Of a DNA stretch of 64,000 nt, positions 31,880 to 64,000 are shown in pieces. Both the position numbers and the translations under genes were made by a program. The first letter of the stretch is position 1; each line of letters starts with the position of its first letter. The notes below the pieces were generated by a model. The model ran no database searches, was not told the DNA's origin, and saw only the letters and a list, made by a program, of their open reading frames with translations. Origin of the DNA: Paraspadella gotoi (Eukaryota > Animalia > Chaetognatha); NCBI GenBank assembly GCA_051294375.1, contig CM119269.1, positions 7,359,446 to 7,423,445 on the forward strand, read 5' to 3'.

Positions 31880-33990
31880 TCACTGTCGACAGAATCTCCT
31901 GACGGGCTCTTCCAAATGCGGAAAGAGTTCCAACATGTCGAGCAAACTCCCGTAGACGACGTTTTCGTAGCTGAAGGACGGAACGACGACCAGATTGATG
32001 AGAGTGTAGTTCTCCCTGGCGTCGCTACCGTTGTGCTCGGGCGTGCCCGGCTGCGGGAGTCGATAGGGAGTCTCCAGCTCGGCCGCCATCCAACACGAAG
32101 CGGGCACTTTGTGAGTGTACAGCGTCTGAGATTTTAAAAAAAGGGCAAAAGGGTTCAAGTTTCAAACGGGCAACGGAAAATTAATCCCGATTGACAAAAT
32201 CTAATCTCTGGCGAACGTAGTCGGGGTATTTGAAAATTATCGTCCATGTTTATTTACGTAAATGAATAATCGAATGAGTTTAAATTGACAAGGGCGACTT
32301 AGTTTACGACGTCAATTCAAAACAATCGCCCTTACCCGAAAATTAGCGAGCAACAGCCGTCGACTTACCCTTGGATCCTCCATGGTGTTTCCTATGAGAC
32401 GTTGAGAGTAATGGCCCTGGTTGGTGATCTGATGAAGAACGAGATTCGTTCCGCGGAGAAAAGTCCAATGTTCTTCCATGTCAATAATTTTGTGCCAACA
32501 GCTGAACTCTCGACCTTTGAGGAGATACTTGACAGAACTGGAGAGGTCCTGGCCGAGATATTAATATAAATATATATTGGTTGTACCAATTTCATAAATA
32601 TTAGCATAAAATAAATATCGAGCATAATTTTATTCTCGCCGATTGGAATTAGGAGGAGGGGTTAAGGATAGTTTAATGGTGATTTAAGGGTATTTAAGGT
32701 TTATGGAGTTTAAAGTTAATATAGTTAACTATTAATTCATTTTTAATAAAGCCTAATTTGAGTTAATTTTACTTTCGCCGATCGGGGTAAAGGGTAAGGG
32801 TTAAGGGTAATTTAGGGGCGGTTTAAGGTTAAAAGGGTTTTAAGGTTAGAGTAATTAAATATTAATTTTTTTTTTTTTAAATAAATATTTTTAGTTTTTC
32901 AAAAGACGACAACACCTTGGTTGGCGAAAATAAAATTTAACCCAATTTTGTTTACATTATTATGCAAAAAAAGCCAAAAGCTAACTTGGAAAAAATCAAA
33001 TTTTAACTAAATATTAATACAAATATAACTTAATTCAAACAATTTATAATGCTTTGTGAAATTATTAAGTGTAATTACCAGGAAATTAAAATTAATAAGA
33101 AAGCCGTTTTCAATGCTATTAGTGCATCCCTAAAATTAAATATAATCATATACAATTAAAAACCATTAGTGGCCCCACTTATTCTTGAATACTGTGGCGA
33201 ATCCTAAATTCGCCTCCCGTATAGCTTGGTGAAACTCAGCTCATCCCATTCACCAACCTTGAGTTCCGGGTTCAATCCCCTCAGGGTCACGCTGGTTAAA
33301 GTGTGATGGTGTCGGCATAAACAAGCCAGTGGTCACTGCAGGTACAAAGCCCTGAGCGCTAGCTGTAAGGAGATGCCTCACACCCCGGGCATCACACGTC
33401 TCCCCATTTCTATAATACTTCCTTTTATTACCTTAACTTTTGATTGAGGCTGCAAAATCAATTCCGGCTAGGATTGGGTAAAAAAAATTTATCAATTAGA
33501 TTCAAGATTTAGGTTTAATAATTTTTTTTTTATATTTTGATCAACAAAACAATAATATTATTAATAAATTTTTACTTTTATATGTTTTACATTATACAAG
33601 GATTTTAACCTATTTTCTAAATATTTTCCCTTTTTCTTATATCATAAACCATTTTTTAAGTTAATCCCATGGGAGCTAGACCTCCCTGTATTAAATGCTT
33701 AAAATTTTAAACGATACAAAAATACCACTGCTTTTTTACTCTTTTAATTCAGAAATAAAATCCGGTCAGGTAAAATAAGATTAATATTTTGTGTCATAAC
33801 GACATACCAAAATACCAACTCCTAACATGTGACATACCGACTCTCCATGGGCAACGTTGGGTTCCGGATCCGGCTCCATCCATCCGCCTTCCAAAGGGTA
33901 GTATTCCATCTTGAACTTTTGGATAACCACTCCAGCAGGACTATTGTTTTGTATCGACTGAGCCGGGATTTGGGGCTCCAACAAATCCAT
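31880..33990 (-). CDS. Cupin_5 / DUF985 (YML079W/Cff1-like) cupin protein, 3 exons, 192 aa
   Basis: Exons 33990-33838, 32548-32369, 32125-31880, all phase 0 GT-AG. Motifs YPLEGGW (cf. HPEGG), SSSVKYLL, FSCWHKI..EEHWTFLRG, VPASCWMAAE, YTLINLVVVPSFSY, LELFPHL follow the DUF985 pattern. Confidence 0.85.
33193..33410 (+). mobile_element. SINE-like repeat family A, copy 1 (5' hairpin, tRNA-like B-box, twister-like core)
   Basis: Clearly homologous to 36808-37031. Hairpin ggcgaat-cctaa-attcgcc; B-box gggttcaatccc 33268-33279; lies in Cupin_5 intron 1. Confidence 0.8.
33314..33377 (+). ncRNA. Twister ribozyme-like motif (type-P1 order), degenerate
   Basis: P1 GGCA/UGCC, L1 UAA, P2 ACA/UGU, L2 GC, P3 CAGU/ACUG, P4 CAGG/CCUG with loop UACAAAGC followed by A, L1-3' AAGGAGA. 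Deviations: expected general-base G reads A; L4 has AC where CC would pair with GG. Confidence 0.6.
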
Positions 33991-34892: not shown

Positions 34893-37438
34893 TCAAAATG
34901 TCGCGGAGGATTTCTCCTCCTTCCAAACGGGATGTCTCGCCCCAAAGACTTGAGAGACGCTTTCGAAGTCGCTCTCTTCTTCGATTCCGTCGTCGATGGA
35001 GTCGTCAACTTCGAGTGGCTCGTCCAGTGGCGTCGAGTCTTGGCCACCGCCGACACCGTCCACTCCACCTCGACCGCCTTCCCCACTTCTCTGCTCAACT
35101 CCATTTCCCGTTTATCTCCATTCTTCTGCTCGTCGTCCGTCTCTTCTCCGCAGCCGCCATTCTCGCTGCTTCGCCGAATCGTGCCGCGGCTGCACCTGCT
35201 GCTTTTCTTTCCGCTGATCTTTTTTTCCAGGAGTCGATGATGTTTCTTGCCTCAGTCGAGTCTTTGGTGATTCTTTGTAATTCTTTCTCATTTGTTCATT
35301 GTTCTGATTTAGGGCCGCTTGCACCAGTTCCTGCCTAAACTGCTTCTCGCCGGAGGCTGACTGCAGTTCTGACTTTTTCTGCAACTCGGACGCTTGCTGC
35401 ATCTCAGACGCTTGCTGCACCTCAGTATCTTGCTGCAAATCCGATCCTTGCTGCGCTCTGGCGACGACCTTTATGGCCAAGGCGAGTCTCTCCTGCCAGG
35501 ACGCCGACGAAGAGACAAACGACGCCGAGACTCGGGGTGCCGACTGAATAAATGACGCCGATTCCCGGGACGCCGAGAATTGTCTAGGGGGCGTCGATTC
35601 ATGAGGTGGGGCCGATTGACGAACCGAAGACAAACCATTCGGCGCCACTGAGGATTGCGGCGTCACTGACGTGAAATCATCCAACGTCGATGCAAAGGCG
35701 CCGCTGGTTGGTGAATCTCTCGACGCCGATGCGACTTCACCGGTTGATGCCGCTTTGGCAGCGCCGGTTGACGCCGCTTCCCTCGTTTTCGGAACGAGAG
35801 TCACGAGACTAGGAAATCCTGGTTTCGCGATGACGCGTTTCGTCTTGACGACGAAATCGGGAGAATCGCTGCGAGGGACGAAGGCGATCTGAATAATTTG
35901 ATTAATTGAATTAAATCATTGATCGATTTATTAATTTCCTTTGATTCATTTGATGAAATGATTGAATGATCCATTGATTATGATTATGATTATGATTATG
36001 TTGGTTTAAATAATTAATGACCTAGGGTTTCAATACGTAGAAAGACACGCCGATTTATTCCTTGATAAATATTATTCCCACCTTCGAGTCTATCTTTCCG
36101 GAGACTTTGAGCTGAGTCTCGTACGACGCAGCTTTCTGTCTTTCGTCATCGTCGACGCTGCGTCGCTGCCGCTGCCGCCGCTTCCCCGGCGTTGGCTCCC
36201 GTCGGTGCAGCTCCGCCTCGGCGCTGCTGTCGAGAGAAGCGGACCGGGTCACGGAACGGAGAGAGACGACGGGCGAGGACGACGCGAGAGAAATTATCGG
36301 CGCTTTGGACAAGCCGGCGTCCTTGATCGGAGTGGACGTTACGATCGAAGCGTCCTCGACGTCGTGTGTCGCAAACGGCGCCGGTCGTTCGTCGGCGTCT
36401 GCTTTGGGCTCCGCTCCGATGGGCGTGGCCTCGTCCTCGATGGGAGCGAAATTCGGCGTCAGGTTTTCCACGAATTCCGAAGAATTTTGCTCTCGATTCG
36501 GCGGCGAGGAGCGCTCCGCCGAGGTCGACGACCCTTTCCGGGATACGAGCGCTTCTCTCGGCGGCGACGAGCGGCTGCGGGAGCTTCTCCGCTCTGTCGG
36601 AAACGCCGTCGTCGACGCTTTGGTTTCGATTTCGGAGCCTAAATGTTTTTCCTGAAAGTTGGGGTTTTGAAATGTCTTTTAAAACAACTTATTATTTCCG
36701 ATCATATTTAACATCGCTATGAGTGTGACATTCGTTCAACCATTATAAAAATTATTCACTCATTCAACAAATTAGCTGTCTAGAAGTAAAAGTATTAAAA
36801 GTAGTAGTGTGGCGAATCCTTAATTTGCCTCCCGTATAGCTTAGTGAAACTCAGCTCGTCCGATTGGCTTGGACAATCCCATCACGGTCACGCTGGTTAA
36901 AATGTGATGGTATCGGCATAAACACGCCACTAACATGAGGTGGTCACTGCAGGTCCAAAGCCCTAAGCACCAGCTGTCGCAATGATGCCTCACACCCCGG
37001 GCATCACACATGCCACTTGCCACTTGCCATTGTAGCACTTTAATCAAACTTCCTTCGCAAGCAATTCCTTTTTTTTTCTTAAATCGTAATTACCCTTTCA
37101 TTTCGCTTCATCCCTAACCCTAAACACAAACTTAGTCTCTACCCTTACACTATCCTAAACTCCGACCTAATCCCTAACCTAATCTAACCTAATCTTTAAC
37201 TCATAAATTGACCATATTTCAAATTTAAGATGGAATGGGCCGTTCTCGGAAAATAAGGCCACCCTTTCCTTACCCTAGCTGCCTTCCCGCTCTGCTCTTC
37301 GATCTTCCCCCGCAGCAGGCGCAGTAGAAACTGCAGCGGATCGTCCGGCGCTGCCTTCAAAAGTTTACACATCATCTCTTCGAAAAGTTGGGTGATGCGG
37401 TGGCGTCGGATGTAGACGGTCGCGTCCTCAACGCCCAT
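34893..37438 (-). CDS. C8orf34/VEST1-like protein with N-terminal RIIa/Dpy-30-type dimerisation-docking domain
   Basis: Exons 37438-37274 (YIRRHRITQLFEEMMCKLLKAAPDDPLQFLLRLL, D/D domain), 36651-36082 and 35888 onward, all phase 0. The frame stops at TAA 35114-35112 but resumes in frame to EEESDFESVSQVFGARHPVW and TGA at 34893, a motif I recall from C8orf34-like proteins. 3' end uncertain. Confidence 0.65.
36808..37031 (+). mobile_element. SINE-like repeat family A, copy 2, with (TGCCACT)n tail
   Basis: Same 5' hairpin and body as 33193-33410; twister-like segment 36915-36989 (ggca taa acac gc ... cagg tccaaagc ccta ... tgt ... tgcc); ends tgccact-tgccact-tgccatt; lies in intron 1 of the C8orf34-like gene. 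Confidence 0.8.
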
Positions 37439-50100: not shown

Positions 50101-53100
50101 ATTTCTCTCATTCAATCATATCTGGTTTTCTTTTTTCTTTTTTTTTTATGTAAAATTGTGAAAAATATCCTAACAAAGCTTTTTAGAATTAATTGATTAC
50201 ACGTTAATAGTAATAATAATAATGATAATAATAATAAATAATAATAATAATAATAATAATGTTTGAAAAAAAATCTGATTTTTCTATAGCTTTTTTAACT
50301 TAGTTCTTAGTCAAAATTAATTACAGGATTCCGATTTTTTCCGTCTTTTGTTTCCATTTTTTTATCTCTTGATCTTATCTGCTTCTTGCTTCTGACTTTC
50401 TTATCTTTTTCATATTTTTTTTCTACGTTGTCCAATCATTTCTATCAACCCTTAAAAGTTTTTGTTTTCTTTTTCTTTTTTTAACATTTTTCTTTGTTAT
50501 TTTCTTTCCTCCTTTAGCCTTTAATTTCCTTTCCTCCTTTACACAATTGTTTCCCTTTTCCTTGTCCTTTTCCTTTCTCTCTAATTCCTTTCCTTTCCTT
50601 TCCTTTCTAACCATTTCTCCCGCGGTTATAATCAGATTTGTTGCTTTGAATTTTTTTCCCTTAGACGAATTCACGAGTCAATTCATCATCTTCAATTGTT
50701 ACCGCGCGAAACTGAAAATAAATAAATTTAACTACGTACATTCGTTCGCAGTGTTAAATACAAATGAATCTACATAGGTTTATGTAAATCGAAACACCTT
50801 TGTCCATTGTCGGCATACACCTGTATTAAAAATCAAATCTCATCGCCCTCAAGGTCATTTCGAAATCGAAAAGGAAAAAGACGACGACGACGACGACGAT
50901 TATTTCGTCAAAAAAGGCGACGACGACGAAGAAGAAGAATACGACGATTTCGACGAGGAGTTGGCCGCCTCCATCTTGAGGGAACTGGGCACCGCGCGAA
51001 AGTGAGCGGGGGGGGGCAGGTAAAAAAAGGAGGAACCGTAGGAAGAAGGAAAGGGGAAAGATGGAGAGGGAAGGGGGAGGGTAAGGAGAAAGGAGAAAGG
51101 GAGGAGAAAAGGGTAAGGTAGGATAAAGTTAAAGGATGGTAGGAGGAATGAAAGAAAGGGTAAACACTAAGTGAAAAATGAATGTTCTGTAGTCGGGCAT
51201 TGCTTTAAGTTCACCCGGCCGATAACCATTATGTACCGGGATCGACGAACTTATATACCAAAACTTGACAAAAACTTTCCCAGCTATCAAAGAGAAATTT
51301 ATATAAAAAACTGTCTTATGCCATAAGGTTAGAACGTTATGGTTAGACTTTTTTTAGTCGGATCTGCAAGTAAAAATAAGTTTAAATAGAAAAAACATTT
51401 CCGTAAATCAGATCATATAGTGATTTTTTTCCATTTCAACTCATTTCCACTTGGACCATTCCATCAAAACTTTATATCCAGCTCAATCACACACTTCCCT
51501 AACCACACACAAAATTTCATTCCTATCCATTCATCCAATCATGAGTAAATGGTGTTTTTCGCTAAGGTGGGACGGACAGACAGATAGACGGACGATCGGA
51601 CGGACGTACGGACATCTTTTTTTTGCATAATTTATCATAATTTGATGTTCTGACATGATATAAGTGAATGCCCGATAAGATTTAGGGGGCGGACCGACGG
51701 ACCGACAAAGTGAATTATAGAGTAGGGATCTGCTGATAATCAGATCCGACTAAAAACTTTGAGATAATTTATCAAATAATTTTGATAGAGCTTTCTACTC
51801 AATGAGCTTTTTTGCATTTAACATGAGTAAAACAATTATTGTGAAATATACCCCATGAGCCAAATCAAATGATATAAAATAAACCACTGCCATACTTTAC
51901 TGTATTGAGATAAACTCAATTATATTTTTTTAATTGATAGATAAATCCTTGATGTTTTTATGTATAAATTAGAAAAGTTAGAAATTGAATTCAACGAGAT
52001 TTTTATTTCAATAGATAAACCGACATGTTTCAGCTTTATTCAAGTCTTCATCAGCGTTAACAGTTGATGAATTCAATTTCAAACTTTTCTAATAACATCA
52101 ACACAACGAAAAAGAAAGCAATACGTCACTATGTATAAATTTTATTTTAATTTATAATCATTAACAACTTTACATCTATCGACGTAGAACTGACAAAGAG
52201 CTGACAAATAAACGTAAACTTAGATCGTTACTGGGTAAAAAGGAACGTTTCTGCTTGCGGAATCTTGCCCATCTAAAGTTAAGCATGCAGAAGCAACATT
52301 ACGCTAGGAGCGATTAAGAAAACCATGCAAGATTCTGTTAACAAATATTTGCCATAAAAAAATGATGGTTTTGAATCGCTTGGATTTGCTTTTGATTTAT
52401 GATTGACATAATCGGCATAAGCTGTTAGTAATTTAGATAGACATAAATAAAAAATTAAAATTAGTAAAAACCAATTAGTTTTTGAAAAAAATCTAAAATA
52501 TATGGATTTCCCTTTTAATATAAACATCTGATTAAAGATTGGAAAAAACGAAATGCACAAAAAAAAGAAAAAGTTTTTATTAAAATTAAAACACCCTTCT
52601 GAATCTTTTGGGGATTGTATTATAGCCAGGGCTTCCTTTGTTAACCGTTCAAAACTTTTTTGTCCCCTTATTGCAGTCGCAAAATCTGATTCTAATTTTG
52701 TTGCAGCATATTGAAAAAACCAAAAAACTATGACTGGTATAAAACAGGATATCGCTAAAAGCAAAATTGCAAAGATAGTCTGCTTTCGTTTGTTTAAGAC
52801 TGTTAAAAATATTTTTTTCTGGGCTACTAAGAAAATTAACAAAATTGTCAATGGATAAAAAAAGATCATTAAAGCTTTAGAGGGTTTATTTTCTTGAGAA
52901 TGTAAAAAGGGCATGGCTCCTAGATATAATAAAGATTCTATAGCTAAAATATATTGAAAAAATATTTTTTTCGATATCATTAAAAAGCTCATATCGATAA
53001 CAAAATAACAATATTTCAATAGTAAATATCATAAAAATAGTTTTATCTTGAATGAAAAAAATTGAACTATTTCCCAATACAATATAAATTTTGTTATTAA

Positions 53101-55158
53101 TAAAACAAAAAATGCTTTTTGAAATACAACCTTGAAAATAAGGAATAGTAAATGAAGTTTCCCACGATTTAAAGGAATTATCGCCATTTTTTGTTATGTA
53201 TACATAAGGTAAATATTTATGTTCCCTTTGTTTAGGTTTGTCTTCAGTTTCTCTAATATGATTAAAAACTATATCGTAAGAACTATCATAAGACAAAGTC
53301 ACAGCAAAAATTAACAAATTACAAAAAATCATCAAAAAGTTTTGAATCCAATAACAACTGTTTGCCTTTGGAACATGGTCATTAAATTTGAGAAAAGCTG
53401 AGTTTATGATAAATTTTAATTGGGTTATTGTAAAAACTCTTAGATCAAAATTGGAGTAATAGCGACGATCCAAAATGATATCTTCAATGCGTAAGAAGAA
53501 ATCAAATACAAACACAGAGAAATACCAACCATTCCTTGCAAACAACCAAAGAAGAAGCTGACCCTTTTTTTTTTACCATTCAAATCGGAGGACCTTAGGT
53601 TTGATGATGTCGTGATTAGGGTTATATTTGATAGTAAAAGAGACACAATTGGAAAATATTCCTTAATTCTCCATTCACAGACAAACTTTGACGTATTTAG
53701 AGAGTACCCAATTTTATGACACCAACAGTTTAAGCTTGTATTTTGTAAAGTCTCATTTTCTGCCTGATAATATACCACTCCTTTCACGGGTCTCCGCAAA
53801 TACGTTTGGGATAAAACCTTATCATCAACAAAACATTGCTCATCATTGATAAAAATCATGTTGTACAGAAGTGATGCTGTTTGCAAAAGCATTTGAAGAA
53901 ATGACTCCATCACAACATGAATGATATTTAAAACAAATAAAATGTTTTCTTTATAAATTATCAATTTTTTTGGTACAGTTTCTTTTGTCAATTTTAAATC
54001 ATATAATATCGGCACTGATCCGAGTCCAACACAAAAAAATAACCCGGTTACCAGTTTTTGAAATTGTGTTTTCCATATTTTGAAAAAATGATTTTCATAA
54101 TTTTTCAAAATAACCAATCCATAAAGCAATGATACAAAGTTATGAATTAGCATAACAGCGCAAAATGCTAACCCAAACAAGATTAAAGTGTAATCTTTTG
54201 ATGTTAAATGATCAATTATCGTCTTGAAGTCTGTAACCAAATCTGCAACTCCAAGAATAATCATGAAAACAACATCCTTTGATCCCGAATTCACCATTTT
54301 TGTCAATTAGAGATTTGTAATTCTTTGTATTTTTGTCTTTTATCATTTAATTATTTTTCTCCTTTTACTGTTTCTCTTCTACTTCTTGGTTTATTTTCTA
54401 CTTCTCATTCCCCATAAGAACCGAAATTAAAATGTTGTGTTGCGCCGCAGTGATTTTGTCAGCCCATGTATTTCCGTGTATTTTCGACACCGGACACGTA
54501 CTGCATTGAAATAATATCATTTATTTTTTCTTTTCCTTCCTCCCCTTCTCCTTTTTCTTTATTTTCTTATTAACCTTTTCTTTTTTTTTTCCTTTCCTCC
54601 TACCTCTTTCCAGACGGTAAATGTCAAATCAAAGCCCAAAAGCGACACCTGCGAATAATATGTTAAATGTGATGGCAGAAAATGTTTCAACATACAAAAA
54701 AAAATGACAAAAAAATTAAATATTGTATTATCCCATTTAATCAATTTCACAAATATAGTGTAAAAAGATATAAAATTAATTAAAATAATAAAGAAATTAA
54801 GATTGAGTCAAAAATATTTGATCTGCCCATTGCAGATTCCGGCTTTAGTATTCATTATGTCGGTCTGACGGTCACCTCCCATAGTTTGATCCGTCATTCA
54901 CATCGAAAATTTTACGCAAAAAAAAAACGGTGTCCTTCCGTCAGTCCACTTATCCATATCTCCGTCCGTATGTCCGTCCGTATGTCCGTCCGTCCGTATG
55001 TCCGTCCGTCCGTATGTCCGTCCGACCGTCATATATTATTATGTAGGGCAATTTCGATTACGAAATCGCATCTGGCAAAACGTCGTTGCAGTTTCTGCGC
55101 AAAATGTCAGGTGAATATGTGCGGAGAGTTCGGTGACTGGGCCTTCGTTTAATTAGCT

Positions 55159-55199
<41 letters not shown>

Positions 55200-58100
55200 A
55201 CATGTAGAGTGTAGACTAGTAGAGTGGCAATAAAAGTTAATAATGAGAACAGAGAGACATCAAATTCAAAAGAGCAACAGAGGGCTAAGCCTTGGACCCT
55301 TTCCCCCAAAATGAACTTCAAACGAGTTTTTTTCATATTTTTAGTAGGGGGTTCTCGGAAGCTCACAGCCAGGAGTGATCCAGCTCTGTGATCAGCCAAT
55401 TGAATAGTGAATTAGAATATACAGTTTTTATACACTCCTGTGCAAAAAAACGAGCCACTTTATAACTTTAAATTCCAGACACTTTTTAAAAATAATATTA
55501 AAAATTATATAAAAAAAATGAATGTTTAAATTTTATTATAATCGGTCAAGTGGTTTAAGAGATATGATTTTTTTAATGTGTATTCCAAAATCAGATGGGA
55601 AAACCGTTTTTTATCTAAAAGCTTTAAAATCATAGACCTATCTTTTATTGTATATTTCAATAAGCTTATGATTATTATTTAGGGATCTGGGGCAATCCAG
55701 TTATCCAGCTATCCCTCCGGATGTCCAGTATAATTTTTTTTCATTTTTAATCAACCATAAGGAATATAAAATATTACAAAAAAAGTTAGTCTTAAATCTG
55801 TGGTAGAGTACTTTATTTAAAAAATCGCTGCTCCTAAATAGATGACCCAATTTTAATAAAATTTATGCTAAACTTATTATTCTTCAATAAACTTTAATTT
55901 ACTTTGTTTTTTAAATTTAAGTATATATGATCATTTTTAAAGTCTGAAATAAAGTGGCGCGATTTTTTTGCACATGACTGTATATTTAAGGGAAGATAGC
56001 TCATATATTAAATAAATGGATGATTTTTATATTGGTTGTACCAATTTCATAAAATTCAGCTTCTTATATTAGCGGTGGCCGACCAAATTAAAATTTTAAT
56101 GGGAACAGCATTAAACTAATCCATTATTGGTATTAATTATTTAGTTAAAATATTTTTTTCAAAACTGTTCCGAACCATGAGTAATTCGCTAATTAAAATA
56201 TTTTACATTTTTTTAATAGATTCTGATAGAGCCCAAAAAGTTAAGCAAAAAAATGTAATATAACTTTTTTAAAATTTTAATGTTTTTTTACTGAAAATTA
56301 GTAAAAACTATGAAAATCATCGGATGATAACGATGATGATCTTTTAAGGTTTTTCCCAATTATCATCAAAATATTGAAAAAAGAATTATACTTTGTGTAG
56401 ACAACTTTTCATAAGCTATCTGAATCTGCTTTTAAAAATACAAAATTCAAAAAAATGTTTTGATATTTCCTATCTATAAATAAATAATAAGAAAATAATT
56501 ACTAGCGCTTCTTGCCATTTTAGAAAATTTTGGACCATTGTAATTTTTTTCAGAAATGTCTGGAGTTTCATTTGGGAAGGTTCACAAATCAAACTTCTGA
56601 CCCACCCCAATGACAAAGATTGGCCCTAATTATATTTTGATGCCGCTACGGAGTACAATATAGTATTCCCCGATCTAATACTTAAGGTACATACAATTTC
56701 ATACAATTGAAACATTCTTTGAAATATTATGCTACTTCAATGATTGGGAAGCCAAGCACTCTGGGAGTGAATAAAGGACACAGTGATAGAGTCTCGATTG
56801 AAAGCTTGAAGGGACCTGATATGTCATTACCCTGTAAGACTGATGGAGGCCGATCTGTTCGACGCTGTCATACCCACTCCACCGTCAACATCGGTTCGTC
56901 GCCATATTGCTGAGAAGCCCTTTGGTTTCCCGAAAAATCTCCGCAGCGCCAGAGCCAAAGCTTCGATCGAGAATAGGTGGGAATGAGAGGATCGAAGTCT
57001 GGATAGTTGGGCGTTGCAACGGTCGACGAAGATCGAGAGCATTCGACGTCTGGCGATGTCAATGTTACGTTGCTGCATTTGACCGAATGTAGATGGAGTC
57101 GGGAATGATTTATTTATCGTAATTCCGAGAAAAAAAAAAGGGAAAAATGAAGGTGTTATGGTGAACTAAAATCCACCAACCGTTCATCAGCGGCTATTGG
57201 TGCAGGAAGCAAGTCATTCGCCGGGGTTCTAGCACGGCGGCCGCATAACAGTTGAAGAGGGACCGGGACCGCTTATCCCGTCTGTGACATCCAAAGCTCA
57301 TGAACTGATTGTATTGAACCCTTCTGTCACTAACTCAAAACAAGGATTTCTGTCTCTTTAGTGGTTTGATAGATCACGTGACTTCTAAGAACAATTTTTC
57401 TGGGTCACGACTAAAGGAACTTTAGTAAAGGAGTCTTGCTTAACTATATATAGCCAGGAATATTTTATAATTTTATGTAAACACAAATTAATCAAAACCC
57501 TTCTTGCCCCCCCCCTCCACACTCTTGCCCCCCAAAACAAAGCGCCCGCAAGAATCCGTGGGGTTCCCTTTCCTACGCGGACCTCATCACACGCGCCATC
57601 TCATCCTCAACCGAGCGACGACTTACCCTCGCGCAGATCTACAAGTGGGTCGTCAGATACGTCCCTTTCTTCCGGGACAAGGCCGGGGCCAACGAGTCCG
57701 CCGGCTGGAAGGTGAGTTGCGGAAAATATTTAGTTGGGAAGAGGGTAAAGTTGGAGAGCTGAAAGTGAGTTACGTGAAAGAGAGAACCTACATTTTTTCT
57801 CTGACTTACATGGTGACAATTTTACAAGCGCCGGTAAAAAAAAGGCTGTCATTTGCAAACCAGTGGTTAGTTCATTGATTCATTTTCTTACTCACTTTTT
57901 TATATTTAATTTTTTTTCTTACTTTCAGTAAGTTTTCTGAAGAAATTTGAAATAGAATAATATTAATTATATTATCTTCTGAAAGCCCTTTCAAATCTAA
58001 AGAGAATAACATACTTGCAAATACTGTAGTATAAAATTTAACCGGCCCAGCTTAAATTTAATTAGGATACTCAAAAATAATACATCTTTCCAAAAATCAA

Positions 58101-61100
58101 TAGCTGGAGGGTAAATTTAAGATTTTTATCAAATTGTGATTAGCTATCTTAAATCTATTTTTTCAGGCTCTTTCATGATACTTATATAAATAATAATATT
58201 TTATGTTATAATAATTTAAACAGGTCATATATTTTAAAAAAGATTTGAAATTTTAGATAATTAACTTTTGACTCTCTTAATTGAACCAAGGCTGGGCCGC
58301 TTAATTTTTATGTTGGAACAAAAAATATAGATCGCCCTTTTGAGCTGGTAGTTAGGCCTCATACTCTAAGTAATCATGCATCCTCATTTCAATCAGCTCT
58401 CTCACAGTCTCGTTATTCATCAGGTACTGCTTCCTATCGAGGAAATATTAAGATTTAGAGTTTGTAAGTATATGCTTTAATTCTAGATATTAATATTAAT
58501 ACTTAATAAATACTTTGTTTAAAAAAGAGCTAAAAGTTGAAAAAAAAATCTAATTTAAAAACAGTGAGTTGGAAAATGAAACCCGATTTTACAAGCCAAC
58601 TTTCTCCACTCATTGCCAAGGCATATCTTAACTGATCAATATAAAATTTGAACACATAAATGACTTTAATATATTCTACTAAACTAATTTTTAAAATCAA
58701 TTAAATAACCACTGGTTTGCAAATGACAGCGTATTTCTACCGGCGCTTGTAAAATTGTCACCATGTGTATTGGATAGTCATTTCCAGCTTTTTAAAGCTT
58801 TCAAAAATAGGAAGGAAAATAATAAAATCGGATTTGCATCATTATTACTGATGTTTCTTAATACCATTTTCTCCCTATTTTTATATGTGTATGTTTCGAA
58901 GCCTTTAAAGGCCTTTCTATAACCTTTATCTCATTCAATCTCGATTCTACCGTAATACAAACGTTTTGAATAGCTTCAAATTTATCAAAAAAATCACGAT
59001 TTAAAATTGTCATTCAGCGGTCATTGCACTTAAACAACTTCCAACACCGCACTATGCAAATTAAATTAAAGAGAAAACAATCTCTCTCGACTCAGAATTC
59101 TATCCGGCACAACCTCTCACTCCACTCCCGCTTCGTTCGCTGCCCGAGCGAGGGCGCTGGGAAATCCTCCTGGTGGACGATCGATCCGACGGCACCGACG
59201 ACGAAGACGCCGCGCCGCCGCGCCGCCACGGCAGATGCCGATTCCATCGCCGAGAAGAGGGCGAAAGTGAAAAGGAAGGTAAGGTCAAGGAACGATTTAA
59301 TGATAAATGAATTAATGAATGAATAAATGAATTAATGAATAAATGAATGAATGAAGAATAGAGAAATGAATTTATGAATGACCGAATAAATGAAAATAAG
59401 CGCATGAACTAATAAATGAATGGATGAATTAACGAATAAACTGAGCAGTGGAAAAAATGAATATAACCGAATGAAAATATTTTGATCGATTAATTATTTT
59501 AATAAAAGAGTGGATGAATAAAATGAGTAAACAAATAAATAAAATTTTCTCACGCCAGGTGGACGCGCTTCGTCGACGAAACGCTTCCGGCTCCAACCCC
59601 TCCCCTGACCCTTCCGGACCGCGTTGGCACCCTCCGCCCCATCCGCCCCCTCCCTCTCTTAACTTGACGATGAACTCTTCCCCTCCTCGCGGCGCCGAAA
59701 CTGAACCGCGCCGCGATTCCGATTCCGTAGTAACGGCGCCGAAACTAGAAAATCCGGCGCCGGATGATATTTCCTTCCTCGCGTCCTCGGTCTTCGAATC
59801 CGCGTCTGCTCGGCCGGCGTCGGAAATCGGCGTTCGGCCACGCCCACTCACGCTGTCCCTCGATCGTCCCGCGATCGACCGTCATCGGACCTTGATCGCT
59901 TCCTCCGACCTACGCTGCCCGACACGAACGTCCTCTGCCCGAACTTCCAGCCCGCCCTCCGACCGACGAAACCTCGCCGACGCCGCGTTCGATCCTCTTA
60001 CCGACATTTCCATGGCCGACACGCCGACGACGTCGATCGCGTGGCCCCGCCTCCTCTCCTCCAACGTTAGACTTATTCCTTTGAGTCACGAAGGGAATTT
60101 TCAAAATCTCTCTTCCGCGGGTGAAATTAAGATGGGGGCCGGCTGGGGGAGGGGGGGTTTAAGTTTAGTTTGTAAATTAATCTATTAGTTTTTAAAGAGA
60201 TCGTATGGTGGACTAAAATCCACCAACCGTTCGTCAGCGGCCATTGGTGCCGGAGGCAAGTCATTCGCCTCCCAACCCAAAGGTCCGGGGTTCTCGCCCG
60301 GTGGTCGTCTGGCAGTTAAGAGGTACGGGGCGCTTAATCCGCCTGTAACACGGTGTTACAGCCTGATCCGAAGCTCAGGGACTGTCATTAACCATATGAA
60401 TAGTTACTGTCTCTTCAATCGTTTTGTCTCTGTTTTCTATTCTTTCTAAAACGCTTTAGAAAAATGTAACAACAATTCAAGGTGAGACAAAACAATAATA
60501 AACGACTCAAGGTCAGTTGAGTTGGGTCAAATAAGTTGACCCACGGAACGGTAAAGTGTTGAGTTTTCGTCGCCGTCGTCGTTGTTGTTGTAGTTGCCAT
60601 GTTCAGCTACAATTCTTTTAGATTCCTGATACATTTACATAATACAACCTGTATGCATAGAGTTTTGTGTTTACATACAGATATTGATCTGGCGCTTTCA
60701 CATCTTGAGGCCTCTCTAGCAGCCATTGAACGTGTTCTGAGCTTAGGGGATGGTCGCTACAGCCCCTAGGCGGTTTACTGCCCTCGTATTGAACCCGGTA
60801 ACCAGTGGTCAGGAGCCTCAAGAAGCCACCAGATAACGATAAGGGATCTGTTGGCATTGTGAATTCCCGCTAGATATTGTACAATACAAATGTCTAATAT
60901 TATACTGTTACTATCTCAGCCAAAACCTCCAGCGAGACCAGACCCAGTACTTCCAACACGCCGTCCGAAGGAGAAAGAAGAGAACACGGACCTCCACCTG
61001 ACCATTCGAATTTCCATGACAACGAGAAAAAGGTTGTTTCTTCGTCTATTATACAATCATAATTTTTTTTATTATTATTTTTTTATCATTATTTTTTATT

Positions 61101-64000
61101 ATTTTTTTTTATTTCAAACTAATCTTACTACAGATTATTTCGAACACGGTTGAGCCGAGTTCATTACCCGCAACTTCGAAATCTCACGAAGTCATTGTCG
61201 GTGAGTCAAATGTCTGCCAAGTAAATCATTTGGTAATCACTGATCACTATCTCTCACTAAAATTTTTTTTTCAAATGTTGACGAAAGCAAAAACAGAAGA
61301 AAAAAATCTTTGAGAAAAGTGAGAAAGAGAGATTTTAATCGTAACAACAGAGTTTTCTGGAAATAAACTTGGCAATATAACAATTGGTATCGATCGATAA
61401 TAGTGATTATTAGTAATAGATAGTAATACGGTATATGTTTCTTCCAGGAGGCATCGATCAGTTGATGTTAGGCGAGAGTCTGGCCGAGCTTATGGAAGTC
61501 GACTCGTCTGCTGAGAACGAGAATTTCGGGTAAAAAACAGGGATGTGGAGCTGGGGTCGGAGCAGCCGGAGCTGGCATATTTGGCTGAAGCTGGAGCTAA
61601 ATTTATTTTCTGACTGGACCGGGAACCGGAGCTGGAGCTGAGACTTTATCATGGCTGGAGCTGGAGTGCTGGAAAAACTGCCACTCAAAAAAAAATTTGT
61701 GAAATAATAAAATTTTATAAAAATTAAAAATGATATTATTTTTTTTAATTATCATCAATTAAGAAATGCTATTCGATGACAATGATCATCAATTAAGAAA
61801 TGCTATTTGATGACAATGATCATCAATTAAGAAATGCTATTCGATGACAATGATCATCAATTAAGAAATGCTATTCGATGACAATGATCATCAATTAAGA
61901 AATGCTATTCGATGACAATGATCATCAATTAAGAAATGCTATTCGATGACAATGATCATCAATTAAGAAATGCTATTCGATGACAATGATCATCAATTAA
62001 GAAATGCTATTCGATGACAATGATCATCAATTAAGAAATGCTATTCGATGACAATGATCATCAATTAAGATAGTTTTACTTACGATTTTCATTCATGATG
62101 AAATATAAAACTTTAACGTTTAACGCGATTTGATTCAAAGCGTTATTAAAAAAGACATAATAAATTAATTCAACTTTATTATAACTTGATCAACAGCTAG
62201 AACACCTTAGTAGTGACAATTTTTTTAATGTATTTTTTATTCTTAAAATATCTAATATTGAAGAGACAGTAATTATTGTTGTGTTAGTGACAGAACCGTT
62301 CAATATAAGCAGTACCTGAGCTTCGTTTCAATTATAAATTTGAAGAGCAAAAACAAAGTTTTGAAAACAAAGTTTTGTCAAAAAAAGGGTTCGTTATTTT
62401 CCGTTTAATTTTGTTTTGTTTTTTTCTCGCCAGAACAAAGAAGACCAGCAACGCCTCTTTCGGCACAATTCCCAATGAAACGTCTGATGAGATTCGTGAG
62501 AAAACAGAAGGCGAGAGCCTTCTTAGTAAGTACAAAGTAGAGCGTGGTAAGCCATTGTATATTAAGTGTAAATTTTTGTTTTTAGTTGCTCCGCGACTAC
62601 TATAAGTAACTTTTCGGTCCGAGACAAGTCTTTATTTTATATGTATATTTCCATTTATTTATTAAACTTTATTCAGGTCTGCTATTCCGACCGACCGGAT
62701 CCAAATCTGTCGGCGTTGTCGGTGACGGCGACTCCAACCACGCCGTCCACTCTGGCGGAGTCGTGGACAACGCCGTTTCGCCGACATCCTCGTCAACGTC
62801 GTCATCGTCGGATCCTGTTCTCCGCCCTCGATCCTGCAGTCACAGTCTCGTACTTCGTTCGACGCCGGCCACGACGCCCCCAAAACGCGGCGCCACTTCC
62901 GATTCCTTTCTTCTTCGTTGCGGCGATCTGCGTCCGCCCGGCGTCATTTTCGGATCGGCGTCGCCTCAAAAAAAGTCGGCGCCAATTATCGTCACGCGAG
63001 CGACGGTGGAGGGCGTTGATTCTCGCGGCGTCGAAGCTGTCGGCGCCATCTTGATCGACTCTGGCGTCGCGGCGACGACCGATGTTGAAAAGAAAGGTAA
63101 CTAACTACATTAGTCAAATTGAATGTATTTATTCTTTTACTTTTTATAAAAAAAATTATAGGCTTATTATTAGATTCATATTACAAATTCAATTTGTAAA
63201 AACTAATAACAAAAAATTATTAAAGAATAAAAATAAATGAAAAACTCATTTAAAAATATGAACATTTGACGTCTTTTGTTTTCGTCAGCGCCTTCTCTCC
63301 TCGAGGTTTTGCTGCTGAACTCGAATTCGAATCATTTGCAACCCACCTGCGATTCTTCGTCGACGGCGGCGGCGACGTCGTCAGCAGCGGCGGCGTCTGT
63401 AAATTCCTCTGCAGCGGCGTCACCGTCGTCGTCGGTTTTGCCTCCCTCCCTTCCCAGCGCCGCCGCTTACCCGATGCTGCCGCCGGCGCTGCATCCGTCG
63501 ACGCAGGACGACGCCGCCTCGCGTTTAGCAAAAATCAGAATGATCCAGCAAAAGTTGATGTCCGAACATTCCGTGCTGCAACAGCAACATCAAGAACAAC
63601 AGATTTCCCCGCAACGACCGAAGAATCAGCTCGTGCAGCTGTTAAAGCAGAGGAGTCCGGCAAAAAATATCGATGTCCCCTTTGGCGGAACGCAGCATCG
63701 CGCGCCGGCGCCGCAATCCGCGCCGCATTTCATTCCAGCCCCGCAACACTCGCCGACTACTCTTGCTATCCAGACTCCTTACCCTCTGACGCTGCACAAT
63801 CAGCAGCATCCTCGGGAATGGACGAAACGAACTCACGAAACTTCACATAGAACTTACACTCAACGTCAGCTTCATCAACAGCAAACTCCGCAGCAAGGTC
63901 AACTGTTACAACAGCATGAGCAGCTGCAGGAGCTTTCGATAAAGACCGAAGATGGGTTAGCTTTCGCTTTTGGATCCCCTGAATCTTTTCCGACGCTTTT
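47166..64000 (+). CDS. FoxO: Forkhead box O transcription factor, 3'-partial, at least 13 exons
   Basis: Forkhead domain [55 protein letters not shown] (57543-57711) | [31 protein letters not shown] (59096-59278), including the FoxO-specific insert. Akt-type sites RSRCNTWP (~47703), RRRAAT, RPRPLT; LxxLL motifs LEVLL and LVQLL. Other exons 47166-47265, 47642-47939, (49949-50009?), 50854-51001, 56839-56976, 59559-60120, 60920-61032, 61134-61200, 61448-61529, 62434-62525, 62677-63096, 63289 onward. Phases agree from 50854 on; the 5' junctions need a 1-nt fix or weak splice sites. Confidence 0.93.
51351..51756 (+). mobile_element. HINE/DINE-1-like non-autonomous Helentron-type element
   Basis: Perfect 16-bp inverted repeat tttttagtcggatctg (51351) / cagatccgactaaaaa (51741), internal (GGAC/AGAC)n microsatellite, 3' hairpin ggatctg-ctgataat-cagatcc, T-run insertion context. 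Confidence 0.7.
52279..54297 (-). CDS. XK-related multi-pass membrane protein, intronless, frameshifted (gene or pseudogene), nested in a FoxO intron
   Basis: Three overlapping hydrophobic ORFs (53440-54306, 52886-53545, 52279-53019). XK-family hallmarks [23 protein letters not shown] (cf. ESAPQLxLQ) and FPIVSLLLS. Frame changes near 53442 and ~52960. Confidence 0.65.
54820..55030 (-). mobile_element. Degenerate HINE-like copy, opposite orientation to 51351-51756
   Basis: (GTCC)n microsatellite; the reverse complement reads ...gaccgtcagaccgacata...gccggaatctgcaatgggcagat, similar to the 3' ends at ~14800 and ~51700. Confidence 0.5.
55431..55982. mobile_element. Tc1/mariner-type MITE with ~31-bp imperfect TIRs and TA flanks
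   Basis: Left ta-cactcctgtgcaaaaaaacgagccacttta vs reverse complement of right end ta-cagtcatgtgcaaaaaaatcgcgccacttta; AT-rich non-coding interior. Confidence 0.75.
57157..57359 (+). mobile_element. SINE-like repeat family B, copy 1 (internally deleted)
   Basis: Homologous to 60204-60415: tatggtg.actaaaatccaccaaccgttc.tcagcggc.attggtgc.gga.gcaagtcattcgcc ... cagtt.aagagg ... aagctca ... ctgtctctt. Confidence 0.8.
57809..58765. mobile_element. MITE with ~60-bp TIRs and a second nested inverted-repeat pair (~58030/~58310)
   Basis: catggtgacaattttacaagcgccggta...gctgtcatttgcaaaccagtggtta (57809-57869) vs taaccactggtttgcaaatgacagc...taccggcgcttgtaaaattgtcaccatg (58706-58765); inner pair cggcccagc / gctgggccg. 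Confidence 0.85.
60204..60415 (+). mobile_element. SINE-like repeat family B, copy 2 (5' hairpin, tRNA-Gly-like head, twister-like core)
   Basis: Hairpin ggtgga-ctaaaa-tccacc; tRNA-like 60237-60308 with acceptor stem gcggcca/tggtcgt, anticodon-loop-like ctcccaa and T-loop ggggttctcgccc; structured 3' domain 60311-60386. Confidence 0.8.
60311..60386 (+). ncRNA. Twister ribozyme-like motif in circularly permuted (type-P5) order, degenerate
   Basis: Closing stem GGCAGUU/GACUGUC; then GAGG; UAA-UCC-GC; P3 CUGUAACA/UGUUACAG; P4 CCUGA/UCAGG with loop UCCGAAGC whose CC can pair with the GG of GAGG. P1 and P2 pair poorly. Confidence 0.5.
61538..61686 (+). mobile_element. Truncated non-autonomous DNA-transposon end with GGAGCT/GGAGCC hexamer repeats
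   Basis: Starts cagggatgtggagctggggtcggagcagccggagct with repeated ggagct units, a layout common in invertebrate hAT-like MITEs; the other end was not found. Confidence 0.45.
61751..62070 (+). repeat. Minisatellite, 34-bp unit atcatcaattaagaaatgctattcgatgacaatg, ~9.4 near-identical copies
   Basis: Directly visible; one C>T variant in copy 2; no spacers. Confidence 0.95.

Follow-up and report, generated by a model that had tools for sequence, protein, structure and literature searches.

A probable solo LTR in the chaetognath Paraspadella gotoi combining a tRNA-like segment with a predicted type-P5 twister

Twister ribozymes have been assigned few roles. Among the mobile elements that come closest to the repeat described here, plant LTR retrozymes carry a hammerhead in each LTR, generate 4-bp duplications and give rise to circular RNA (excerpts of PMC4918200, PMC7761336 and PMC6765202), while the animal retrozymes treated in the accessible parts of the literature are non-LTR elements tied to Penelope elements (PMC7229834; bioRxiv 10.64898/2026.07.22.740005). 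The animal TRIMs known as Helenus have a tRNA-like part within the LTR, 4-bp duplications, a Gypsy-type PBS and solo LTRs, according to the available text of PMC10886601, and in the accessible part of its supplement the LTR of Helenus-3_MeDo starts with TA and ends with CA. No ribozyme is mentioned for Helenus in that portion of the paper's text. By eye, a motif resembling a hammerhead follows the tRNA-like part in the wasp LTRs of Helenus-2_SyJa and Helenus-2_SyUm, as given there. Searches for exact motifs in the same supplement, whose line breaks can hide matches, returned no twister-like context by eye.

The repeat under study lies in a window of 64,000 nucleotides of P. gotoi (contig CM119269.1), to which all positions below refer. 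Elsewhere in this window an intronless ORF gave an XK-related lead in an atlas search, and there is a forkhead/FoxO-like exon. We regard it as fairly probable that the repeat is a solo LTR belonging to a non-coding LTR retrotransposon of small size, that this LTR contains a tRNA-like, probably Pol III, promoter together with a predicted type-P5 twister, and that the element spreads via an RNA circle in the manner of a retrozyme. A search of the open-access literature found no paper describing an LTR element with a tRNA promoter and a twister.

The element, copy 1 of what we call family B, occupies 60204..60417 on the forward strand (214 nt; its 3' end had been placed at 60415 in the original prediction), begins with TA, ends with CA, and is bordered by ATCG at both 60200..60203 and 60418..60421, a target-site duplication matching at 4/4 positions (p ~0.003 by local composition). 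Evidence at the level of the family comes from contigs of public sequencing runs aligned on two of its copies, copy 1 and copy 3. Among the best 24 of the 577 loose-end rows on copy 1, breaks fall exactly at 60204 in 149, 138, 88 and 26 contigs and one base before it in 50, 39 and 23; among the best 12 of 98 such rows on copy 3, the break comes straight behind its terminal TCTTCA in 66 and 42 contigs and one base past it in 30 and 17. Beyond these ends, hints of an internal part of the element are weak: a purine-rich majority line precedes 60203 in run X4 (50 contigs of median length 56, against 255 in the main group; agreement 0.41) and recurs weakly in run X1, and a C-TGG line behind the 3' end appears in run X4 only (agreement 0.39) and is absent from X5. 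The ends resemble those of an LTR in being fixed and in closing with CA, but an LTR would typically open with TG and not, as here, with TA. No A-rich or simple-repeat tail follows the sharp CA of copy 1, and neither a two-LTR copy nor a PBS or PPT came to light in the 64-kb window. A DNA transposon or MITE was also considered and dropped, as the ends of copy 1, compared by eye, do not form a terminal inverted repeat.

Family B is a multi-copy family: 10201, 8143, 1586 and 589 contigs from four runs match copy 1, and the ratio of summed contig depth to flank in run X4 comes to ~19,000, or ~620 once divided by 31 for word overlap, a quantity that is not taken as copy number; a cautious estimate is that copies number in the hundreds to thousands. 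Copy 1 itself is a decayed remnant, in which the general-base G of the ribozyme, the A of the B box and 19 nt of the tail are gone. The junction of this 19-nt deletion, which is private to copy 1 and lies between short direct repeats, is at 60384..60385 (forward strand); behind 60384, 104, 117, 49 and 32 contigs of the four runs read on differently, and the deleted segment is present in copy 3. Copies without the deletion are ~233 nt long.

The 5' part of copy 1 (forward strand throughout) opens with a hairpin of 7 bp and a 6-nt loop at 60206..60225, upstream of the tRNA-like part, followed at 60225..60232 by a leader stretch that can pair along 8 nt with the tail of the family, which is deleted in this copy. 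The copy 1 leader paired with the copy 3 tail yields -11.8 kcal/mol, and the same layout in the related family A yields -10.5; from such folding energies, a leader/tail duplex is predicted to enclose the tRNA-like part and the ribozyme in intact copies. The tRNA-like segment extends over 60237..60308 (closing stem 60237-43/60302-08) and so starts 33 nt inside the element's 5' end. Within it, 60245-56 is A-box-like and 60290-98, with GGTTC, is B-box-like; at 60295 copy 1 has C, while A, the conserved B-box letter, accounts for 90-99.6% of contig depth. The 'Gly' label given to this segment is an assumption that draws on the CCC at 60271-73 in the anticodon-like loop and on likeness to tRNA-Gly sequence, and no tool confirmed that identity. 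A cloverleaf likewise found no backing, ARAGORN reporting 0 tRNAs and Rfam no tRNA over 60150-60500 at E<=10. In the four copies tested there is no T4 run inside the element.

Behind the tRNA-like segment lies the predicted type-P5 twister fold, at 60311..60386 on the forward strand. Every motif quoted in the original prediction is found where it was placed: GGCAGTT (60311-17), GAGG (60320-23) and TAA (60335-37), then TCC and GC, an 8-bp P3 (60343-50/60354-61), CCTGA-TCCGAAGC-TCAGG (60362-79) and GACTGTC (60380-86). The P5 closure drawn from them (60311-17/60380-86) stands insofar as GACTGTC is present, but its last two letters come from beyond the deletion private to copy 1. What had to be altered is the register, by four bases. 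In the type-P5 order, the P2 strand sits directly 5' of G-A and three pseudoknot letters (Rfam consensus; S. mansoni table in the available part of PMC8501958). Since the P4 loop reads UCCGAAGC (60367-74), the pseudoknot strand must be CGG, which is located at 60326-28; the two letters at 60324-25 therefore correspond to the general base and the conserved A, and GAGG at 60320..60323, previously assigned as the catalytic strand, is the 3' strand of P2. The 3' strand of L1 accordingly comprises 60324..60328, with the general-base position at 60324, A60325 and the CGG. P2, described before as unpaired, and the L4 pseudoknot both pair in the corrected register: P2 with its partner 60338-40 through two pairs next to an A.C mismatch, or through three pairs round a bulged A60321; and CGG with CCG at 60368-70 in a fully Watson-Crick, 3-bp L1-L4 pseudoknot. 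A second pseudoknot of 2 bp, also fully Watson-Crick, joins GC 60341-42 to GC 60373-74. Next to the L1 strand lies a 6-nt P1 linker (60329..60334) that forms a single G.U pair in cis, and then UAA (60335..60337), where no variant at or above 5% is listed; the remainder (60341..60379) holds the GC, the 8-bp P3, a 5-bp P4 and L4, and its letters recur in contig loose-end lines at copy 3. After the shift, a type-P5 twister behind the tRNA-like segment is supported by its letters and pairings, and the predicted cut stays at the U-A site 60335/60336.

The contigs of other copies bear on this register at two positions. At 60324, where copy 1 has T, G makes up 98.6, 99.3, 99.9 and 99.6% of contig depth in the four runs, and at 60338 C makes up 93-99.8%; these are both letters that the shifted register demands. 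No further core variant reaching 5% is listed, and variation of 5-31% is seen in the P3 loop and at CpGs of the head. In run X4, CpG transitions at or above 5% affect 0/4 core and 6/8 other CpGs (p 0.06), a contrast that may be a seeding bias, as contig depth falls off across the core. In the longer pseudoknot, the opening pair is C-G in family B, U-A in family A and G-C in S. mansoni. Absence of P2 and the pseudoknot from many copies had been named as an argument against a twister; most copies hold both pseudoknots and a P2, built from two G-C pairs with an A.C mismatch or from three pairs round a bulged A. To judge from these letters, family B retains the catalytic set and copy 1 is likely impaired.

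How much deviation a twister can bear is indicated by natural variation. In the CHiTA data on natural twisters, as far as given in the excerpt of PMC11662667, imperfections of P1, P2 and P4 are tolerated and pseudoknot or catalytic changes are not, and with U in place of the general-base G the fraction cleaved averages 0.34 as against 0.76; single-mutant data for the rice twister agree (PMC5113685, in part), and P1 is reported as dispensable in twisters (PMC5408937, in part). Viral contigs were scanned by exact pattern with pairing scored afterwards; the counts are samples and the phage folds predictions. Among the matches listed, the same pseudoknot variant occurs with P2 at 4/4 and a P4 of at least 3 pairs in 17/120 phage loci, amounting to 7 distinct cores of about three unrelated types, and the common variant with P2 at 4/4 and a P4 of at least 4 in 20/121 viral loci; likewise among the matches listed, a 3-bp P2 is found in 24/124 phage loci and a 6-nt P1 linker in 2/81, the latter with one, non-palindromic sequence. 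A separate metagenome scan with an 18-nt core motif gave 29 loci with no match beyond 31 nt, which were taken as chance. From the letters and pairings of most copies and the tolerance of tested natural twisters, most family B copies are predicted to cut, and copy 1 to cut poorly.

Further copies lie in the window. Family B copy 2 (57157..57360, forward strand; flanks GTGT/GTGG, 3/4 match) is decayed and is indeed the related copy that it was said to be (74% over 150 nt, E 1e-23, BLAST), lacking not just most of P3, as noted before, but also most of P4 and the anticodon arm; in it the CGGG/CCCG hairpin that rivals P2 is lengthened to 5 bp. Copy 3, on the reverse strand at 62325-62259 and found by BLAST, is a 5'-deleted 3' fragment with a family-like tail. 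Family A copy 1 (33193..33414, forward strand, right end approximate) begins with TG, has a candidate duplication ATAC/ATAC (4/4), and repeats the family B layout of 5' hairpin, tRNA-like part and P5 twister, here with a 4-nt P2 and an 8-nt self-complementary P1 linker. Family A copy 2 (36808..37031, forward strand, right end approximate) gives a weak Rfam Twister-P5 match at 36903-36965, of 10.6 bits and E 9.4 against a gathering score of 37.6.

Computed folding gives a mixed picture. Copy 1 has a fold z-score of -3.3, none of 200 shuffles being as stable, and in the whole copy the middle pairs of P3 reach a probability of 0.98 and P4 0.88. P5, at 0.88-1.0 in the isolated core, drops to 0 in whole copy 1, a loss that may follow from the deletion of the leader-complementary tail. 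P2 has probability 0 in nested folding, and the competing CGGG/CCCG hairpin about which the original prediction had cautioned is real there: with pseudoknots unscored, hairpin 60326-29/60338-41 stands at -24.2 kcal/mol and P2 at -16.0. Comparison with twister models, which had been suggested as a check, brought no significant match. Rfam lists neither a ribozyme nor a tRNA, at E<=1 for the full 64 kb and at E<=10 for 60150-60500 (RF02684 included). A covariance model of phage cores, built from 46 of 53 structure-complete ones after six near-duplicates and one doubtful AT-rich case were dropped, gives seven matches, the best three being copy 1 and the two copies of family A at a non-significant E of 0.28-0.79, and aligns copy 1 in a different register. 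Two other folds were tried and rejected: an HDV-like one, where the T-loop resembles HDV L3 but the neighbouring pairings it needs are absent and Rfam gives no HDV match, and twister-sister, whose motifs seen by eye (GCAAGU, GCUCA) lack the needed neighbouring pairings and have no Rfam match.

A rival explanation keeps the Helenus-like solo LTR and denies its ribozyme a function, the twister being a relic in which the CGGG/CCCG hairpin or the weak P2 blocks cutting, and the element moving like any other TRIM via linear RNA. The lead of that hairpin by 8 kcal/mol speaks for it, albeit in nested terms, as does the third P2 pair, being a mismatch or a bulge; defects of just this kind in P1 and P2, however, are tolerated in tested twisters (PMC11662667 and PMC5113685, in part). 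Rfam is silent at copy 1, and the majority of Helenus LTRs, to go by the available text, are mobile although no ribozyme is known in them. Against this, most copies of family B retain every catalytic and pseudoknot letter while loop and head positions vary, and the diverged family A has the same core, with a compensatory change in one pseudoknot pair. We consider a relic twister unlikely.

Markedly less probable still is a SINE-like or SM-alpha-like non-LTR element with a LINE- or Penelope-derived 3' end that inserts by target-primed reverse transcription. A tRNA-like part followed by a ribozyme is the layout of SM-alpha (PMC6765202, in part), twisters occur at the 5' end of RTE LINEs (PMC8501958, in part), and P3 of copy 1 opens with letters similar to the S. 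mansoni P3 of the accessible table. Such an element would not, however, be expected to have a 5' end fixed 33 nt upstream of its tRNA-like part or a 3' end fixed at CA with the tail absent, although scattered 5' truncations could hide, the fixed ends coming from the best 24 of 577 and 12 of 98 rows. The 5' part missing from copy 3 could be read as a truncation of this sort, but no matching duplication surrounds the copy, which fits a later deletion instead. The duplication is of 4 bp in copy 1 (3/4 matching in copy 2), neither variable nor longer, and no tandem arrays occur among the three family B copies. Fixed TA...CA ends, a 4-bp duplication, the absent tail and the 33-nt offset are features of an LTR and not of the SINE originally proposed, and copy 1 likely fits the solo LTR of a Helenus-like TRIM.

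That the twister match is coincidental and the structure of some other kind is very improbable: the covariance-model scores are not significant and the twister-P5 descriptor was set after the sequence had been seen, so that its 0.033 expected sites per window (mean of 60 dinucleotide shuffles) is an optimistic figure, and demanding G at the general base leaves 0 sites in the window, but the descriptor matches once, at copy 1, the contigs of other copies independently gave the letters required at 60324 and 60338, and the top three model matches are the three full repeat copies.

On the preferred reading, of a solo LTR with a cutting twister, the element would multiply as follows. Pol III would start at the tRNA-like part and read through to the second LTR; two cuts, one per LTR, would release a unit-length RNA, which would ligate to a circle and be copied by Gypsy enzymes. 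Because the circle would restore both LTRs, such an element could survive a cutter placed downstream of its promoter, a position that would end a SINE lineage and would suit a two-LTR element. The P1 linker of family B is self-complementary in trans at 6/6 positions (4 Watson-Crick and 2 G.U pairs, -8.3 kcal/mol) and that of family A copy 1 at 8/8, where self-complementary words make up 4.6% (6-nt length) and 1.7% (8-nt length) in these repeats. Such palindromes hint that two ribozymes cut as a domain-swapped pair; the phage fold with its non-palindromic 6-nt linker means that cutting in cis is possible too. A more specific model, which we offer as tentative and on balance doubtful, is a Pol III-driven animal LTR retrozyme in which the P1-palindrome twisters of the two LTRs swap halves and cut only when paired. 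Were this so, solo LTRs such as copy 1 would stay silent, release of the circle being left to full elements; no natural dimeric twister would precede this one, which would have a built-in check that both LTRs had been transcribed. Taken with the hammerhead-like motif of the wasp Helenus-2, this model would also mean that tRNA-promoter TRIMs gained unrelated ribozymes at least two times.

A high-copy animal LTR element with a tRNA-type promoter and a twister would carry cutting followed by circularisation over to a new class of ribozyme and a new group of hosts, and it would tie Helenus TRIMs to retrozymes, whose LTR type is described from plants with hammerheads. Twisters with a short P1 escape detection by Rfam, and elements of this kind may therefore be widespread but catalogued as SINEs.

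Compared with the type-P5 twister (RF02684; PMC5408937 and PMC11662667, in part), family B shares the strand order P5-P2-GA-pseudoknot strand-P1-UAA-P2-GC-P3-P4-L4-P4-P5, complementarity in both pseudoknots and the general-acid A, with the general base G present in most copies and missing from copy 1. It differs in having a 6-nt self-complementary linker for P1, a P4 of 5 bp and a P2 in which two pairs are joined by a mismatch or a bulge, and in lying below Rfam detection. Among retroelements of Schistosoma, as far as the available text goes, Perere-3 (PMC8501958) likewise has a twister in an animal retroelement, but there the twister is of type P1 and stands at the extreme 5' end of a coding RTE LINE, whose duplications are variable; SM-alpha (PMC6765202) has a tRNA-type promoter with a ribozyme behind it, as in family B, but the ribozyme is a hammerhead and the repeats are in tandem. 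Plant LTR retrozymes (Cervera, Urbina and de la Pena, 2016; PMC4918200, in part) are, like family B, non-coding, with a ribozyme inside the LTR, 4-bp duplications and solo LTRs, and they have in common with our proposal a Gypsy helper and circular RNA (PMC4918200, PMC7761336, excerpts). They differ, in the same sources, by type III hammerheads and LTRs of 300-400 bp, against a twister, an LTR of ~233 nt, a tRNA-like promoter and an animal host; their circles are demonstrated, whereas those of family B are proposed. In Helenus TRIMs (TRIMp3; Kojima, 2024), to go by the accessible portion, the tRNA-like part lies mostly near the 3' end of the LTR and is followed by a T-rich run, whereas in family B it lies near the 5' end without a T4 run; common to both are a short non-coding LTR, an internal tRNA-like part with A- and B-box motifs, the 4-bp duplication seen in animals, and TA...CA ends, which occur in Helenus as well.

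Two copies of family B, the repeat under study, which is probably a solo LTR, likely lie in sense orientation within introns of a FoxO-like gene (57540-61530), so assigned on the basis of a putative exon at 57541-57712 that we take to encode a forkhead domain. Both sense copies (copy 1, 60204-60417; copy 2, 57157-57360) carry damaged ribozyme cores, a pattern that comprises two cases only, and copy 3 (62259-62325) is antisense. On the minus strand, long open frames (52279-54306) have an XK-related lead in the Atlas, with a score of 0.90 and low recognition.

The second family, A (33193-33414 and 36808-37031), shares with family B its layout of a 5' hairpin, a leader pairing with the tail, a tRNA-like part and a type-P5 twister. 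Its P1 linker, or shortened P1 stem, is 8 nt long and self-complementary, and its 3' end also has a stretch complementary to the P2/L1 strand, which could serve as an off-switch for the predicted ribozyme. Other repeats in the window include a large duplication, some 5 kb long and in inverted orientation (1029-6227/6329-11937; 85-89% identity), three two-copy families (14699-14854/51599-51756, 27270-27381/37149-37261 and 57808-57880/58695-58766), and a tandem array with a unit of about 34 bases (61747-62070).

Among animal TRIM elements with a tRNA-like part inside the LTR, Helenus-2_SyJa-LTR and Helenus-2_SyUm-LTR, whose sequences are given in supplement DataS1 of PMC10886601, read by eye as having a complete type III hammerhead 3' of that part, with core motifs, three stems and complementary loops; the portions of the article text consulted do not mention it. 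Among the phage matches listed, eight contigs (L289, L290, L322, L329, L330, L337, L348, L349) each carry several predicted type-P5 twister-like folds at intervals of between a few hundred and two thousand bases, all with a 3-bp P2. Two listed matches of one sequence, L435:27-71 and L461, have a predicted fold of this type with a 6-nt P1 linker that forms no palindrome in register, and this fold is a natural comparison for cutting in cis.
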